64,000 bases of DNA from Escherichia phage Turkey3. The translations under genes and the position numbers were made by a program. Below, piece by piece: positions 60,241-64,000 of this stretch. The stretch is from the sequence record PQ471515.1. The stretch is one strand, 5' to 3'. Position 1 is the first letter of the stretch, and every line of letters begins with the position of its first letter. The notes beneath the pieces were generated by a model that was given only the letters and a program-made list of their open reading frames with translations, made no database searches and had not been told where the DNA came from.

Positions 60241-60269
60241 TTGACAACCTTCCAGTACTGTTGTACAAT
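60241..60269 (+). promoter_or_regulatory. promoter TTGACA-N17-TACAAT for the plus-strand small-gene array
   Basis: followed by AAGGAG and ATG at 60295; divergent from the last minus-strand cassette promoter. Confidence 0.6.
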
Positions 60270-60294
60270 AGAAGGAATATAAGGAGAACTACAC

Positions 60295-60522
60295 ATGACA
60301 AATACTCTTAAGTACTACCTCAATACTCTAAATGAACTAGAGTACGCGAAGTTTCTCGCGGATAGTTCGTGGCTAATTGAGCTAAAAACACATAACAGTA
60401 CTGGATGTAACCTTATGCTGAACAATGCACTTGATACCCTTGTAGTGAGCATTTTACACAACAACATCTGCGGGGATAGAAACAAACAATTATCAAAAAT
60501 CTTAGTACTGGTAGCTCTATGA
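60295..60522 (+). CDS. small protein, ~60-75 aa tandem paralog family
   Basis: 75 aa; first of ~17 consecutive small ORFs with related starts (M..EYY) and hydrophobic L.L(I/V) C-termini. Confidence 0.55.
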   Translation: MTNTLKYYLNTLNELEYAKFLADSSWLIELKTHNSTGCNLMLNNALDTLVVSILHNNICGDRNKQLSKILVLVAL

Positions 60523-60731
60523 ACACTATGAACATTGAACAGTACTACATTGATGCACTACCAACAAAAGGTCTACGAGAAAGCCTACTGTATACACAAA
60601 ATAATTATATAAACCTCAAACATTGTCCTAAACTCTTGAACTCGTACAGGAATAATAAAATAAGAAATGCTGTACAAGGGGTAGAAAGTATGCAATACTA
60701 TTACATCCTAACCCTTTTAATCGAGCACTAA
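60519..60731 (+). CDS. small protein, tandem paralog family
   Basis: 70 aa; MNTMNIEQYYIDALP. Confidence 0.55.
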   Translation: MNTMNIEQYYIDALPTKGLRESLLYTQNNYINLKHCPKLLNSYRNNKIRNAVQGVESMQYYYILTLLIEH

Positions 60732-60732
60732 T

Positions 60733-60918
60733 ATGTATAAAGAATTCTACTGTAGTAAGCTGCACAAACAATACAGAGATTCATTTCCCAATGAACCTAT
60801 GGATATGAATAGTCCCTTTTATAAATTTGACTTCAGACTGGAGACACGTTATGCAATAGAACATCAATTTCCTGAAACTAAGTACTTATCTATCATGAAC
60901 CTCATCTTTAAGTTCTAA
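60733..60918 (+). CDS. small protein, tandem paralog family
   Basis: 61 aa; MYKEFY. Confidence 0.5.
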   Translation: MYKEFYCSKLHKQYRDSFPNEPMDMNSPFYKFDFRLETRYAIEHQFPETKYLSIMNLIFKF

Positions 60919-60929
60919 AAGAGTACTAT

Positions 60930-61142
60930 ATGAAAACAATGAACATACACCAGTACTACTTAGATATTCTCCCTAAAGATGTACAGTTCATCCTTAAACA
61001 AGAATACAGTACTTTAAAAAACCTTAAAAGAACCGCACCGAATGCATTAATCCTGCACCAAAAAAATGTAGTTGATAATATTCTACAAGGTGTACCAGGG
61101 ACCGAGTACTTTAACATAATAAGGCTAATTACATTACCATGA
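60930..61142 (+). CDS. small protein, tandem paralog family
   Basis: 70 aa; MKTMNIHQYYLDILP. Confidence 0.55.
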   Translation: MKTMNIHQYYLDILPKDVQFILKQEYSTLKNLKRTAPNALILHQKNVVDNILQGVPGTEYFNIIRLITLP

Positions 61143-61324
61143 ATCATATATTATACTATTACCAAAATCTATCCGACAGGGACAAGTACACCCACAACTC
61201 CAATGTATGGTACTACAAACGCGGTAGTATAAGAGACAAACAACATTACTTCTGTATTGCTATAAAAGAAGCACTAACAACTAAGTACACGTACAGAGCA
61301 GTACTGAAACTTATTGATATGTAA
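61139..61324 (+). CDS. small protein, tandem paralog family
   Basis: 61 aa; ends KYTYRAVLKLIDM. Confidence 0.5.
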   Translation: MNHILYYYQNLSDRDKYTHNSNVWYYKRGSIRDKQHYFCIAIKEALTTKYTYRAVLKLIDM

Positions 61325-61334
61325 AGAGAATACT

Positions 61335-61517
61335 ATGAGCATTGAATTGTACTTAAGTAAATTACAGCCTGGCGATAGATTCATCTACAATCAGTTCTGT
61401 ATCAACTACAAGAACGGGAGCAACAAATATCGTCGAGGATACCTATATACAAGCACAAGAGATGCACAAAACGAAAAGTACACATACAGAGAAGTACTTA
61501 AACTAATCTCTATTTGA
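61335..61517 (+). CDS. small protein, tandem paralog family
   Basis: start at MSIELYLSKL; ends KYTYREVLKLISI. Confidence 0.5.
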   Translation: MSIELYLSKLQPGDRFIYNQFCINYKNGSNKYRRGYLYTSTRDAQNEKYTYREVLKLISI

Positions 61518-61525
61518 GGTAATAT

Positions 61526-61711
61526 ATGAATACATTTGAGTACTATACAAATAAACTATCTATGCCTGAAAGATCTCATCTCTATGTGTGGAGAAATGCG
61601 TATAAAAGCGGCAATAAACTTATACAAAGAAATTCCCTTACAGTGTGTACAAATTTAATTAAAGCAGAGTACCGCACATATATTGAAGTACTGAAACTGA
61701 TAGCAATCTAA
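61526..61711 (+). CDS. small protein, tandem paralog family
   Basis: 61 aa; MNTFEYYTNKL ... YIEVLKLIAI. Confidence 0.55.
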   Translation: MNTFEYYTNKLSMPERSHLYVWRNAYKSGNKLIQRNSLTVCTNLIKAEYRTYIEVLKLIAI

Positions 61712-61719
61712 GGTACTCT

Positions 61720-61899
61720 ATGCAAGAATTCTATATCTATAAACTCCAGCACAAAGATAGATACAACTATAATAAATTCCAAAGGTACTACACAGTCGGG
61801 AACAAAAGAGATAAAAAACGTTATCTACTCTCGTGTACAGTAGAAGCACAAAACGAAAAGTACACGTACAGAGAAGTACTTAAACTAATCTCAATCTAA
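61720..61899 (+). CDS. small protein, tandem paralog family
   Basis: 59 aa translated by hand (MQEFYIYKL ... KYTYREVLKLISI); below the ORF-track cutoff. Confidence 0.5.
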   Translation: MQEFYIYKLQHKDRYNYNKFQRYYTVGNKRDKKRYLLSCTVEAQNEKYTYREVLKLISI

Positions 61900-61906
61900 G
61901 GTAGAC

Positions 61907-62095: not shown

Positions 62096-62103
62096 GGAAT
62101 AAT

Positions 62104-62283
62104 ATGCAAGAATACTATATAGAACACATAAGCATTAAAGACCGTTTCATGTACGACACCTTCGTGAAGTACTACAACTTGGCAACTAACAGTACTAAAA
62201 ATATTAATCTCAATAGCTGCATTCATCACGCACTAACAAAAGATAATCCCTTCAGGGAAATCCTCGCACTAGCATCTGTATAA
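62104..62283 (+). CDS. small protein, tandem paralog family
   Basis: 59 aa translated by hand (MQEYYIEHI ... EILALASV). Confidence 0.5.
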   Translation: MQEYYIEHISIKDRFMYDTFVKYYNLATNSTKNINLNSCIHHALTKDNPFREILALASV

Positions 62284-62294
62284 AGGAAAACCAA

Positions 62295-62954
62295 ATGAAA
62301 CTTAATGCACACAGCAAACAATACCTTAAGCACTTTAAGTACCTCAACAGTATTCAAGCAGAATCTATTACATCTGCATATACGTATCACCCAAATGTAC
62401 TAAAGAAACGAAATAAAAAGAAAAAATCCAGAAATGTTCTCGTATCTAAGAACCTCAAATCGTACTTGAAGAAAAATAATATAGCTCTTGCTTTTATTAA
62501 TATCTATAATACTGATTTAAAAGTATTGAGTACTAATACCAGCACAAAAGCACTAAAGAATGCATCTATCTATATACACATGGATAATATCCCGTGCACT
62601 ATAATTCTATCTTTCGGGAATGTATACTTCTTCGGGAATTGTAATAGCACCCATGATATCAGTACTGCACAATTCCAAATCGGAGATATGTACTGCATGG
62701 GTTCAGAAAAAATACACGATAACATGCACTTCTTCCAAAAGCAACGTACTAACGAAACTGATACAGTACTGCAATTCCTCAAAGAACTAGAACACAAAGA
62801 ATTATCCGACGAAGAAGAATTCATGTACAGTACTGTAATCGATAATCCAGGACTCTATAAAAACGCGTACAAACTAACAAAACATGTACAGGAACTTATC
62901 AGTACTGATAAGAAATTTCATCACCTCATTACGTATATTACAAACTATGTATAA
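62295..62954 (+). CDS. hypothetical protein (larger gene embedded in the small-gene array)
   Basis: 219 aa, basic N-terminal region. Confidence 0.55.
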   Translation: MKLNAHSKQYLKHFKYLNSIQAESITSAYTYHPNVLKKRNKKKKSRNVLVSKNLKSYLKKNNIALAFINIYNTDLKVLSTNTSTKALKNASIYIHMDNIPCTIILSFGNVYFFGNCNSTHDISTAQFQIGDMYCMGSEKIHDNMHFFQKQRTNETDTVLQFLKELEHKELSDEEEFMYSTVIDNPGLYKNAYKLTKHVQELISTDKKFHHLITYITNYV

Positions 62955-63132
62955 AGAATACTACATAGATAAACTCCCAATGCATCTACAATACCTTGTA
63001 CCAACAGAACCATTGGGTATAGAAAAAGACTACGAAAAAGACTACTTCGTTAAGTGCACTAAATCCTCGATAGATATTGACGACTATAATCGAGTACTGT
63101 ATCACATCATTTTACTAATATATAAGTACTAA
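62947..63132 (+). CDS. small protein, tandem paralog family
   Basis: start at MYKEYYIDKLPMHLQ; ends YHIILLIYKY. Confidence 0.5.
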   Translation: MYKEYYIDKLPMHLQYLVPTEPLGIEKDYEKDYFVKCTKSSIDIDDYNRVLYHIILLIYKY

Positions 63133-63133
63133 T

Positions 63134-63313
63134 ATGCACAAACATAAAGAATTCTACTTGTCGTACCTTAATTCCGATATAGTAACATCCAATACCTTCA
63201 GTACTAAAATTATCTATAATGAATTAATGAAAGAATGTATTAAAGGTGCTATTAACCCTAAAGATACGTATGACTTGTACTATGCAGTACTAACCCTTGT
63301 TTTCACGAAATAA
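63134..63313 (+). CDS. small protein, tandem paralog family
   Basis: 59 aa translated by hand (MHKHKEFYLSYL ... YYAVLTLVFTK). Confidence 0.5.
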   Translation: MHKHKEFYLSYLNSDIVTSNTFSTKIIYNELMKECIKGAINPKDTYDLYYAVLTLVFTK

Positions 63314-63321
63314 CACATAAT

Positions 63322-63510
63322 ATGAATAACCACAAAGAATACTACATAGATAAACTCCCAATGTATCTACAGAGCCATATACCAAACGTTGCATTGGGAA
63401 TAAAAGATGACGCAAAAACAATGTTCCAAGAATGTACTAAGTACACCCTAATGTTCGAGGATAGAACATATAAACTGTACTACATCCTCGCCCTAATATT
63501 CAAGTACTAA
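63322..63510 (+). CDS. small protein, tandem paralog family
   Basis: 62 aa; MNNHKEYYIDKLPMYLQ ... YYILALIFKY. Confidence 0.55.
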   Translation: MNNHKEYYIDKLPMYLQSHIPNVALGIKDDAKTMFQECTKYTLMFEDRTYKLYYILALIFKY

Positions 63511-63520
63511 AGAGAACAAT

Positions 63521-63703
63521 ATGCATAAAGAATACTACACACAATTTCTCCCCAGTATATTTGAACACTACGCCAGATATAAAGTCCCCCTGGATAACGA
63601 TTTGGCAGTACTGGGATTCAATAACTGCATAGAACGAAGTATAGAAAATAGTAGTAGTTATGACCAGCTATATAACACTATCCTACTTATATTCAGGTAC
63701 TAA
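63521..63703 (+). CDS. small protein, tandem paralog family
   Basis: 60 aa; MHKEYYTQFLP ... YNTILLIFRY. Confidence 0.55.
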   Translation: MHKEYYTQFLPSIFEHYARYKVPLDNDLAVLGFNNCIERSIENSSSYDQLYNTILLIFRY

Positions 63704-63704
63704 T

Positions 63705-63896
63705 GTGTATAAAGAATACTACATAAAAGATTTACCACCGCACCTTCAAGGTAATCTGTTAGAAGATGAACCTCGCGGTATCAATGCACAAAACGATAAA
63801 GTGTACTTTACTATGTGCACTAAAGCATGTATACTAGATTTTGATAGCTACCATCGAGTACTGTATCATGTACTGTACCTAGCTTTCGTGTACTAA
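63705..63896 (+). CDS. small protein, tandem paralog family (possible GTG start)
   Basis: VYKEYYIKDLPPHLQ ... YHVLYLAFVY; the ATG in the family consensus position is out of frame, apparently by a 2-nt insertion. Confidence 0.4.
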   Translation: MYKEYYIKDLPPHLQGNLLEDEPRGINAQNDKVYFTMCTKACILDFDSYHRVLYHVLYLAFVY

Positions 63897-63906
63897 GAGA
63901 ACAATA

Positions 63907-64000
63907 TGCATAAAGAATTCTACTTAAGCCATCTGGAACTAAACTCCCAAATGCTTATACCACTAAAACCAATAGATATCAAGGATAAGAAAAATACCAA
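63907..64000 (+). CDS. small protein, tandem paralog family (3'-truncated by window end)
   Basis: begins MHKEFYLSHLELNSQ. Confidence 0.4.

Follow-up and report, generated by a model that had tools for sequence, protein, structure and literature searches.

The 64,000-nucleotide stretch of Escherichia phage Turkey3 analyzed here (PQ471515.1; hereafter the window) ends in a run of small genes, which raises the question of whether these genes are copies of one another, how they are expressed, and what they might do for the phage. The window belongs to an Asteriusvirus jumbo coliphage, and this region is 95-96% identical to WPEC3, WPEC5, Ecwhy_1 and fEgEco12. A first-pass annotation had proposed about 17 small paralogous genes read from one promoter. 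We find 17 consecutive ORFs on the plus strand, from position 60295 to the window end, separated by gaps of -8 to +11 nt and covering ~98% of the DNA. Only 15 of them are demonstrable paralogues, however, and one of the other two (w11) encodes 219 aa. The earlier description therefore stands in part, with corrections on w01, w11 and the start at 63705, and its interpretation is supported as far as the paralogy of these 15 ORFs. The features are as follows.

60241..60269, plus strand: sigma-70-type promoter TTGACA-N17-TACAAT, 11 of 12 consensus positions
60281..60286, plus strand: Shine-Dalgarno AAGGAG of w01, read directly from the sequence
60295..60522, plus strand: w01, 75 aa, first ORF of the putative operon; family membership not demonstrable
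60519..60731, plus strand: w02, 70 aa, subfamily C; BLASTP to w04 E 1e-9; phmmer cluster 2
60733..60918, plus strand: w03, 61 aa, subfamily B; phrog_11711 E 2e-15; phmmer cluster 0
60930..61142, plus strand: w04, 70 aa, subfamily C; BLASTP, phmmer, family HMM
61139..61324, plus strand: w05, 61 aa, subfamily A, basic, pI 9.4; BLASTP, phmmer
61335..61517, plus strand: w06, 60 aa, subfamily A; BLASTP to w08 E 1e-17
61526..61711, plus strand: w07, 61 aa, subfamily A; BLASTP, phmmer
61720..61899, plus strand: w08, 59 aa, subfamily A; BLASTP, phmmer
61907..62095, plus strand: w09, 62 aa, subfamily A; BLASTP, phmmer
62104..62283, plus strand: w10, 59 aa, subfamily A; BLASTP, phmmer
62295..62954, plus strand: w11, 219 aa, unrelated gene; phrog_29152 E 2.6e-116
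62947..63132, plus strand: w12, 61 aa, subfamily B; phrog_11711 E 8e-27; 8-nt overlap with the end of w11
63079-63107: promoter-like site inside w12, homologous to the w16 site but weaker; repeat family D8
63134..63313, plus strand: w13, 59 aa, subfamily B; phrog_11711 E 1.4e-6
63322..63510, plus strand: w14, 62 aa, subfamily B; BLASTP to w12 E 1e-16
63521..63703, plus strand: w15, 60 aa, subfamily B; phrog_11711 E 2e-24
63705..63896, plus strand: w16, 63 aa, subfamily B, GTG start; BLASTP to w12 E 1e-18
63841..63869, plus strand: promoter-like site TTGATA-N17-TATCAT inside w16, 10 of 12 consensus positions; also in WPEC5
63906..64000, plus strand: w17, subfamily B, cut by the window end; family HMM match; orthologue WPEC5 gene 15663-15851

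The promoter is as first described, with TTGACA at 60241-60246, a 17-nt spacer and TACAAT at 60264-60269. It is the sole 11/12 sigma-70-type match in the region, is preceded by an A-rich tract, and is conserved in five phages, among them WPEC5, 121Q, SD-2_S15 and the divergent JNE01. Across the window, the pattern TTGACA-N16-18-TAYNAT occurs 11 times, against 1.25 expected, and every time on the plus strand. No intrinsic terminator was found inside the array, with no terminator-like hairpin within 60241-64000, and most array genes show translational coupling or their own Shine-Dalgarno. A single-promoter operon fits these sequence features, although the promoter-like sites inside w12 and w16 count against it; if it holds, the strong host-type (sigma-70-like) promoter would drive the whole operon.

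Details of the gene calls hold up to varying degrees. All the N- and C-terminal motifs quoted for the small ORFs are present, and the three members reported to escape the ORF list are w08, w10 and w13, at 59 aa against a cut-off of 60 aa. The array does run beyond the window end, where WPEC5 and fEgEco12 (95% identical) carry four further genes. We place the start of w06 at ATG 61335 and not at the upstream TTG 61314, since orthologue annotations use the ATG and a Shine-Dalgarno-like aaagaga lies upstream. The member at 63705 (w16) had been thought to have lost its ATG through a 2-nt insertion and possibly to use GTG. The GTG start is real and occupies the usual TAAT-start coupling position, but it reflects an A-to-G substitution (ATG to GTG): the junction has the same length in the WPEC5, 121Q and SD-2_S15 orthologues (TAATATGCAT versus TAATGTGTAT), which identifies a point change.

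Formal comparison reveals significant similarity at two levels, contrary to the absence of pairwise similarity that would have spoken against paralogy. Within subfamilies, BLASTP gives E values of 1e-3 to 1e-27; between them, hhalign links B to A (93.9%, E 1.6e-7, 56 columns) and B to C (92.3%, E 5.5e-7, 53 columns). The resulting superfamily comprises 15 ORFs (w02-w10, w12-w17) of 59-70 aa in subfamilies A, B and C, and the family HMMs recover exactly these 15. Tyr6 is invariant (129/129 family sequences) and Leu57 is found in 125/130. Identity between subfamilies is 15-30%; the copies have diverged deeply and are of old, not recent, origin. Subfamily B shares a profile in PHROGs v4, phrog_11711 (62 positions, without assigned function), with full-length matches at E 1e-6 to 8e-27 and 8 of 24 tested sequences matching; in contrast, no member of A or C matches any PHROG at E<0.001, and these two subfamilies, present in no library, are linked to B only by profile-profile comparison.

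Membership could not be demonstrated for w01 or w11: neither exceeds 5.7 bits against any of the three subfamily HMMs, where shuffled sequences reach maxima of 9.6-11.6, and the w01 group stays below 6% hhalign probability. The position of w01 is conserved in all relatives, and w11 sits at the subfamily A/B boundary in every array, all 23 of its homologues (23/23) coming from phages of the same type; its AlphaFold model is unusable (pLDDT 37).

The array is a real one, and it is restricted to Asteriusvirus. An exhaustive HMMER search of 1.84 billion representative proteins returned 25 matches, a search of 5.8 billion proteins only 58 matching clusters, and the matching phage records number only 33-35, each 311-386 kb, from Escherichia and Salmonella phages; within these searches the family is confined to this genus. 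We examined array content in 11 genomes, namely ten complete arrays plus the window, whose array is cut by the window end. Family HMMs count 13-19 copies per genome, and subfamilies A, B and C are all kept in 11/11 genomes, in mostly conserved order.

Tandem duplication shows at the DNA level in junction repeats spaced 184-196 nt. Subfamily A ranges from two to six copies between genomes, WPEC5 has a w14/w12 hybrid as its gene 13, and gene 16 of WPEC5 is absent from the window. Through unequal crossing-over between conserved gene junctions, the array may gain, lose and recombine copies, and a single ancestral gene, encoding a soluble four-helix protein of ~60 aa, would have been amplified to 13-19 copies that then split into three subfamilies.

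Runaway tandem duplication could in principle have produced such an array as a nearly neutral by-product, tolerated where packaging room is spare, with copies of little individual function. The variable copy number (13-19) and a fairly high dN/dS of 0.3-0.5 would suit this reading, as would the proposal of Hua et al., in the form cited in PMC7247149, that jumbo phage genomes grow by tandem duplication. We give it little credence, however. Every copy retains an intact ORF and the core residues, even in JNE01 where dS >1, and the three subfamilies persist in all 11 genomes. Moreover, some members are fully conserved in protein while synonymous sites differ: the w15 protein matches its WPEC5 and 121Q counterparts at 100% identity, with pS 0.12-0.18 and pN 0. 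As expected of real genes, the ORFs are under purifying selection (pooled dN/dS ~0.5 against 121Q and 0.34 against JNE01; by protein region, 0.29 at the N-terminus, 0.51 in the middle and 0.38 at the C-terminus). Positive selection, common in arms-race proteins, leaves no sign among the array ORFs, since dN/dS is below 1 everywhere in the array, a point against the host-interaction role favoured below.

Selection may also act on the nucleic acid. A palindrome found across the clade, (C)AGTACT(G), reaches its highest density in the array, where it is maintained at synonymous positions. Its 8-bp form, CAGTACTG, lies at 60253-60260 in the spacer of the 60241 promoter, and AGTACTG directly precedes the -10 hexamer of the promoter-like site inside w16. 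This density hints that the array DNA or RNA may matter too: either could additionally serve as a dense (C)AGTACT(G) platform adjoining the genome end, with a palindrome-binding early-transcription regulator, an RNA-processing enzyme or a factor acting at the terminus or terminal repeat as possible binding partners, and the palindrome would then influence which codons are used and even the EYY and EVL motifs conserved in the peptides.

AGTACT stands at 7.8 per kb in the array versus ~2.5 per kb elsewhere in the window, but enrichment extends genome-wide and to the distant phage RaK2, so that the motif is not array-specific. Against synonymous-codon shuffles we observe 28 AGTACT (expected 7.3 +/- 2.2), 67 GTAC (34.4 +/- 3.8) and 7 CAGTACTG (0.5), although many copies occupy homologous codons of paralogues, so that duplication accounts for part of the excess and inflates the shuffle z-scores. 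AGTACT is found in all three reading frames, and codon choice depends on context, TAC being favoured after a G-ending codon and GTA before a C-starting one. The JNE01 array retains 8.3 AGTACT per kb though dS >1. Conservation exceeds that of other hexamers (67% versus 49% in 121Q; 30/30 versus 83% in WPEC5), an excess that could merely mirror conserved protein ends. The motif also appears in the spacer of one promoter class and in terminator stems, and in the 2 kb of non-coding DNA containing the physical genome end it recurs ~15 times as TTCAGTACTGAA. AGTACT has no known binding factor, and we consider such a second use of the array unlikely.

We modelled one member, w12 of subfamily B, with AlphaFold, which predicts four helices (pLDDT 87.9, pTM 0.70); we assume the same fold for subfamilies A and C from profile homology. 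Comparison of the w12 fold with solved structures found no similarity and no informative structural relative. By their negative GRAVY the array proteins are soluble. The conserved N-terminal E-[YF]-Y-x3-L and C-terminal Y-x2-[IV]-L-x-L-I would form a hydrophobic scaffold presenting a rapidly evolving middle segment, which could give each copy its own target.

Alternatively, the small proteins might bind nucleic acid as regulators, for instance in early-to-middle switching, and possibly recognise AGTACT. Of the six members of subfamily A, four (w05-w08) are strongly basic (pI 9.4-9.6, net charge +4.5 to +6.6), the predicted fold is all-helical, and no protein is known to bind the palindrome. 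Subfamily B members, in contrast, are acidic or neutral; none of the 10 array proteins tested reached the cut-off of any Pfam family, helix-turn-helix and other DNA-binding families included, NCBIfam gave zero significant matches, and at least 15 diverged regulators for one motif would be hard to explain. We regard this role as quite improbable.

Genome context suggests a different role. In fEgEco12, the direct terminal repeat of 20,993 bp was confirmed by PhageTerm and restriction digests (PMC13070987). The last array gene there ends at 353,438 and the repeat starts at 353,741, leaving 302 nt between them, and an array inside the repeat, as in SPO1 or T5, is thus rejected for this phage. The putative array operon closes the unique part of the genome as its last transcription unit and is oriented towards the right-hand 21-kb terminal repeat. 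We note that this repeat is itself rich in small early genes. In the related phage CBB, RpoD-like promoters cluster among short hypothetical genes that its authors took as early, host-takeover genes (PMC5259590), and the related phage PA5oct depends on host RNA polymerase (PMC7318152).

On the other side, the array neighbours a second one, of 17 RCC1-like beta-propeller paralogues. Both arrays diverge from one 84-bp intergenic region in every genome examined, and both vary in copy number; the small proteins might accordingly be chaperones, adaptors or regulators that co-diversified with the RCC1-like proteins as their partners. The two arrays lie on opposite strands with different promoter types, however, each RCC1-like gene having, by eye, its own TATTAAATA-like upstream sequence and its own terminator. 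Nor do copy numbers track, phAPEC6 having 11 RCC1-like genes (PMC7247149) where small genes number 13-19, and the mass-spectrometry table of the phAPEC6 virion contains the RCC1-like gp549 and gp551 and none of the array proteins (PMC7247149). A partnership of this kind strikes us as highly improbable.

We favour, at a little better than even confidence, an early operon whose accessory proteins interact with the host and have diversified within a lineage-specific tandem family. The absence of array proteins from the phAPEC6 virion table fits this reading. The early timing is suggested by promoter type and genomic context: host RNA polymerase would transcribe the operon immediately after infection, and its products may be accessory binders in host takeover or anti-defence.

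How does such an operon compare with known systems? Anti-CRISPR and other anti-defence operons with an Aca repressor encode small proteins behind a strong early promoter. The array likewise has a strong, presumably early promoter, and the palindrome CAGTACTG in its spacer could offer a repressor a binding site. In contrast to those operons, no helix-turn-helix gene was detected in the array operon (Pfam, 10 proteins; NCBIfam), the palindrome is a genome-wide motif and not a private operator, and we found no similarity of the proteins to known inhibitors or to any solved structure.

The pre-early genes of T5 form a host-takeover cluster in a phage with a long terminal repeat. In SPO1, the host-takeover module is a cluster of 26 genes (PMC6873191). 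These modules and the array have in common small proteins, mostly of unknown fold, strong host-type promoters and an association with a long direct terminal repeat. The genes of those modules are unrelated to one another and are located within the repeat, whereas the array, just outside it (302 nt, fEgEco12), is made of 13-19 paralogues presumed to share a single fold. A module of the SPO1/T5 type would be expected to shut off host functions early in infection.

T4-like phages have hyperplastic regions, flanked by PeSL promoter/terminator cassettes (PMC2839356, PMC4122927), that also hold variable small accessory early ORFs shuffled by recombination at short conserved sequences. Their ORFs are unrelated, whereas those of the array are paralogous; the array has one strong promoter and no per-gene promoter/terminator cassette or terminator-like hairpin (60241-64000), and the repeats that recombine are the ends of its own coding sequences. 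PeSL-like hairpin-promoter cassettes occur elsewhere in the window.

Among large viruses, the genomic accordions of poxviruses are tandem expansions of paralogues. Jumbo phages have gene arrays of their own in the RCC1-like genes of phAPEC6 (PMC7247149). As in both of these, the small-gene array was amplified in tandem and then diverged, and its copy number varies among close relatives; it differs from them in an unusually small unit of ~190 nt and in the age and deep divergence of its copies.

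Translation of the + strand reveals 17 ORFs lying back to back from 60295 to the window end, as the first-pass annotation had described; 16 lie entirely within the window, and the last, from 63906, runs off its end. Adjacent ORFs are spaced by -8 to +11 nt. Translational coupling is suggested at five junctions, where neighbours overlap as ATGA or adjoin as TAAT-start; at most of the remaining junctions a Shine-Dalgarno-like AAGG, GAGG or AGAGA is present. The promoter assigned to the run is exact to the base. It lies downstream of an A-rich tract. No other site in 59500-64000 matches the consensus at 11 of 12 positions, and the promoter is kept in phages WPEC5 and 121Q, in Salmonella phage SD-2_S15 and in the far more distant JNE01. 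Terminator-like hairpins were sought within the array and none was found. Across the window, TTGACA-N16-18-TAYNAT occurs 11 times against 1.25 expected, on the + strand every time.

60241-60246, + strand: TTGACA of the array promoter
60264-60269, + strand: TACAAT of the array promoter, after a 17-nt spacer
60281-60286, + strand: AAGGAG, downstream of TACAAT
60295-60522, + strand: w01, the first ORF (75 aa)
62295-62954, + strand: w11, the 219-aa gene
63705-63896, + strand: w16, a GTG-start ORF

The GTG start of w16 had been ascribed to a 2-nt insertion, from comparison with a paralogue rather than with orthologues. It is in fact an A-to-G substitution in the start codon: the window reads TAC TAA T GTG TAT AAA, WPEC5 and SD-2_S15 read TAC TAA T ATG CAT AAA, and 121Q reads TAC TAA C ATG CAT AAA, all of equal length.

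All-against-all BLASTP of the ORFs separates them into three blocks:

Subfamily A: w05-w10, the 'KYTYREVLKLISI' type
Subfamily B: w03, w12-w17 and later genes
Subfamily C: w02 and w04

Single-linkage clustering with phmmer of 73 unique small proteins, taken from the arrays of the window, WPEC5, 121Q, SD-2_S15 and JNE01, gave clusters of 42 (B), 15 (A), 8 (C) and 4 (w01 type). Profile-profile comparison connects B with A (93.9%, E 1.6e-7, 56 columns) and B with C (92.3%, E 5.5e-7, 53 columns); the w01 group stays below 6% and joins no subfamily. Neither w01 nor the 219-aa w11 exceeds 5.7 bits with any of the three subfamily HMMs, a level below the 9.6-11.6 bits reached by the best among 2,600 shuffled controls. 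We considered both as distant members, w11 with a large insertion, from a faint likeness of their ends by eye, and rejected this since their scores lie within those of the shuffled controls. The BLASTP blocks, the profile links and the control scores therefore place 15 of the 17 ORFs in one superfamily. The similarity among members is significant by BLASTP and by profile comparison, and the first-pass count of about 17 small paralogues is two too high, by w01 and w11.

An alignment of 130 unique members, numbered on w12, reveals conserved positions at E4, Y/F5, Y6 (129/129), L10, F/L34, C37, T/I38, L/I42, Y/L51, I/V54, L55, L57 (125/130) and I58. Sequence varies over 12-33 and 43-50.

Subfamily HMMs run over every + strand ORF of ten complete arrays count 13-19 members per array (C 1-2, A 2-6, B 10-12). 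The window holds 15 before its end, and its closest relatives hold 19. Gene order is broadly conserved, with a 219-223-aa gene at the A/B boundary. Gene content is reshuffled between the window and WPEC5: WPEC5 gene 13 joins the N-terminus of w14 to the body of w12, and WPEC5 gene 16 is without a counterpart in the window. The pairs w06/w07 and w08/w09 appear to be two copies of a single two-gene unit. The best-conserved DNA is that of the gene junctions (C-terminus, Shine-Dalgarno, N-terminus), which recur every 184-196 nt, and unequal crossing-over at these junctions could produce these patterns.

The 219-aa gene is itself present in every Asteriusvirus array examined; in Salmonella phages SD-2_S15 and SD-6_S16 an internal deletion has shortened it to 137 or 120 aa (locus L003, 5575-5988). 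An AlphaFold model of its product reached a pLDDT of 37.

Near-neutral duplication is one rival reading of the array. By Nei-Gojobori counts on best-matching pairs, pooled dN/dS is 0.50 against WPEC5 and 121Q, and 0.34 against JNE01 (dS about 1.25). Over 32 reciprocal-best pairs the ratio is lowest in the first 15 codons (0.29), intermediate in the last 15 (0.38) and highest in the middle (0.51). The proteins of some members, w15 among them, are 100% identical in 121Q despite differing synonymous sites. These simple counts give no sign of positive selection, the few single-gene ratios above 1 being based on very few substitutions. We hold with high confidence that the array consists of genuine small-protein genes, one tandem family arranged as a single operon of early type.

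For w12, AlphaFold2 with a 24-sequence family alignment gave a model with mean pLDDT 87.9 and pTM 0.70, with predicted helices at residues 2-7, 12-15, 28-43 and 47-60. The array proteins are soluble by calculation, with negative GRAVY (hydropathy), and are rich in tyrosine (9.8% across the array). Within subfamily A, w05-w08 are basic (pI 9.4-9.6) and w09 and w10 near neutral; subfamily B proteins are acidic to neutral. This mixture of charges bears on a further rival, that the small proteins bind nucleic acid.

The region 60241-64000 shares 94-96% identity with Escherichia phages WPEC3, WPEC5, Ecwhy_1, fEgEco12 and CMSTMSU. Only 33 records match it, every one from a phage of Escherichia or Salmonella whose genome is roughly 310-386 kb long; those classified belong to the genus Asteriusvirus, within the RaK2-like jumbo myoviruses. 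A tblastn search with w12 and w08 found 35 phage records only (31 Escherichia, 4 Salmonella phages). Searching 5.8 billion protein clusters with a profile gave 58 matches, all from phage-sized contigs (~350 kb) or short metagenome contigs, and an exhaustive HMMER search of 1.84 billion representatives (E up to 0.001) gave 25, of which 24 are short and family-like; the other, the 309-aa repeat protein P0092, looks spurious. A related-locus search seeded with w15 found only phage 121Q in IMG/VR, and one seeded with P0051 found no match. The GAP32 genome end, on inspection, is without an analogous small-gene array. PHROGs covers subfamily B alone (phrog_11711, unknown function). Pfam and NCBIfam hold nothing at family cut-off, sub-threshold matches to EB1, LytM_N and thymidine kinase being treated as chance, and a PDB sequence search gave no match.

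Array members are often missed by gene callers or deposited annotation: 3 of 18 are called in an ENA metagenome contig, and some are unannotated in the PBECO4, SP27 and Turkey5 records. Database counts of the family are therefore underestimates.

The WPEC5 annotation shows the matching stretch as a series of 'hypothetical protein' genes, preceded by an opposite-strand run of RCC1-like 'chromosome condensation regulator' genes. A metagenome relative, a 250-kb contig, repeats this gene order, the RCC1-like array leading to small genes, a 222-aa gene, further small genes and then a ~2-kb gap. This adjacency bears on the alternative that the small proteins partner the RCC1-like array; in the phAPEC6 virion proteome, RCC1-like gp549 and gp551 are listed and the small array proteins are absent (PMC7247149). 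In the window, the minus strand holds 17 tandem ORFs at 39890-60210 (245-461 aa, mostly about 370-400 aa), of which at least those closest to the small-gene array are RCC1-like, being so annotated in relatives; the phAPEC6 paper gives 11 RCC1-like genes only (PMC7247149). At least 10 gaps between these ORFs contain a terminator-like hairpin, GCCAGTAC-N3-GTACTGGC, then a T-run and a TATTAAATA-like sequence before the next gene.

The array reads toward the right-hand terminal repeat. The 374,733-bp genome of fEgEco12, 95% identical to the window across the array, has 20,993-bp direct terminal repeats, found by PhageTerm and confirmed by restriction digests (PMC13070987). In its record the genome's first base recurs at 353,741, and the last array gene ends at 353,438. 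The repeat thus starts 302 nt past the array, leaving the array as the last transcription unit of the unique region. If the window is organised likewise, the repeat would start ~1.2 kb past the window end. Non-coding DNA opens the repeat, and after it come small + strand genes that have sigma-70-like promoters of their own. For the related CBB, the authors report RpoD-like promoters concentrated where short hypothetical genes lie, which they suspect of early host takeover, and late genes with an upstream ATAAATA motif (PMC5259590); the related phage PA5oct relies on host RNA polymerase (PMC7318152). Together with the repeat and the virion proteome, these points support, though they do not prove, early expression by the host polymerase and a non-structural role.

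Downstream of the array, ~1 kb past the window end, lies a ~2-kb non-coding stretch that contains the physical genome end (the repeat start):

16656-18620 of the WPEC5 locus L001: non-coding stretch
5440-7430 of the fEgEco12 locus L009: non-coding stretch
1-1690 of the fEgEco12 locus L010: non-coding stretch

It has raised GC content, several hairpins and the short repeats GGATGGCTAAACGGCTAG and GAATTTTGGGCGTA; Rfam returned nothing credible for it. The stretch may be a site of terminus-recognition or replication signals. We note that the array coding strand (window 60001-64000; L001 12001-16000) has more C than G (GC skew -0.12 to -0.22) and far more A than T (AT skew +0.18 to +0.20), GC skew being about +0.1 in the window's other + strand genes and in the + strand early genes of the terminal repeat. 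The cumulative skew minimum falls at the array end, at the terminal-repeat boundary.

The array is also dense in a palindrome. Its 3.7 kb contain GTAC 69 times (10.8 expected), AGTACT 29 times (1.1 expected) and CAGTACTG 7 times (0.03 expected). Shuffling synonymous codons within the 16 complete ORFs, with proteins and codon usage kept, leaves an excess: 67 GTAC observed against 34.4 +/- 3.8, and 28 AGTACT against 7.3 +/- 2.2. AGTACT occurs in all three reading frames, and AGTACT sites are more often conserved between phages than other hexamers. This argues for a rival in which the motif-dense region acts at the DNA or RNA level. The synonymous-site excess is also seen in the window's other genes (z = 6-9), with context-dependent codon choice, TAC being favoured after a G-ending codon and GTA before a C-starting codon. 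In addition, many array copies sit at homologous codons of the paralogues (xAG-TAC-Txx in 'EYY', xxA-GTA-CTx in 'EVL'), and duplication therefore inflates the AGTACT statistics.

The over-representation extends through the window (AGTACT 178 copies, 8.1-fold; CAGTACTG 43 copies, 65-fold) and to the first 50 kb of Klebsiella phage RaK2, of a different genus (7.1-fold and 46-fold). AGTACT density is nonetheless three to four times higher in the array, at 7.8 per kb against ~2.5 per kb for the genome, and is 8.3 per kb in the JNE01 array. In one promoter class, TTGACA-N8/9-(C)AGTACTG-TATAAT or AGTACTGGCATAAT, the palindrome lies immediately upstream of the -10 (as AGTACTGTATAAT or AGTACTGGCATAAT); this holds for 10 of 40 strong promoter-like sites, against ~3% by a chance estimate from motif density.

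14627, 18938, 29804 (and 60241) in the window: (C)AGTACTG sigma-70-like promoters
17323, 20196, 22606, 22958, 24741 and 25278 in WPEC5 L001: (C)AGTACTG sigma-70-like promoters

A factor bound at that position would control RNA polymerase access. The palindrome also lies in the terminator stems after each RCC1-like gene and, as TTCAGTACTGAA, in ~15 copies in the non-coding stretch around the genome terminus. AGTACT is similar to the E. coli SlmA site in its core and to the LexA box in its half-sites; neither was retained as its identity, since flanking bases and spacing do not fit. Literature searches for the palindrome gave nothing relevant.

On one further reading the array would be dual-coded, at once a repertoire of diversified small early proteins and the densest patch of a clade-wide 8-12-bp palindrome, (TT)CAGTACTG(AA), which is present too in early promoters, terminator stems and the stretch with the physical genome end. 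A phage or host factor reading it would control early transcription or the handling of the terminus and terminal repeat in RaK2-like jumbo phages, and the array would belong to that control region. We regard this as a long shot.

GCGC does not occur once in the 64-kb window, where 59 copies are expected, nor in 50 kb of RaK2, where 37 are expected; AGCGCT, CAGCTG, AGGCCT, ACCGGT and CCATGG are absent from the window, where GGCC is at 0.2x and GATC at 0.5x expectation; the array has one GATC against 8.2 expected from synonymous shuffles. A near-identical cassette, AAGGGTTGACTTCGGTCAGCCCTTTTTGCTATAAT, occurs at seven + strand sites (20717, 24311, 27354, 31651, 32374, 33758 and 36518). It consists of a hairpin with a -35 box in its stem, then a T-run and TATAAT, and so combines terminator and promoter in much the same way as the PeSL elements of T4-like phages.

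Homology gives no function for the array proteins, and we therefore infer their mechanism from anatomy. The promoter is strong, of host type and next to a terminal repeat rich in early genes; the proteins are small and soluble, and their conserved hydrophobic scaffold encloses a middle that evolves faster; the family is confined to one genus, and its copy number turns over. Together these traits fit a host-interaction profile. The paralogues could be accessory takeover or anti-defence proteins, diversified for different targets or host variants. We propose such a host-interaction role tentatively, with slightly more doubt than belief.

The host-takeover and anti-defence proteins of phages reside chiefly in the early regions, and most are singletons of unknown fold. 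Here, one small fold is present in 13-19 diverged copies in one putative operon, with copy number varying among close relatives. The array is thus a natural variant series on one scaffold, suited to asking which functions a jumbo phage requires in the opening minutes of infection. Across about 35 genomes, a block of genes annotated 'hypothetical protein' now falls into one family with three subfamilies. No report of the palindrome was found in the literature searched, and both its over-representation and the total absence of GCGC are common to the distant jumbo phage RaK2. The array is moderately interesting now, and would be more so if the palindrome link proved functional.

Literature searches on the array gave nothing relevant; the genus papers checked describe no arrays but the RCC1-like one or other 'arrays of closely related genes'. 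Among named entities phrog_11711 comes closest, with no assigned function and covering one subfamily only. In function, the closest likeness is to the host-takeover or pre-early clusters of long-terminal-repeat phages and to the plastic early regions of T4-like phages. The array is distinct from both in consisting of single-fold paralogues, lying just outside the repeat, without per-gene regulatory cassettes.
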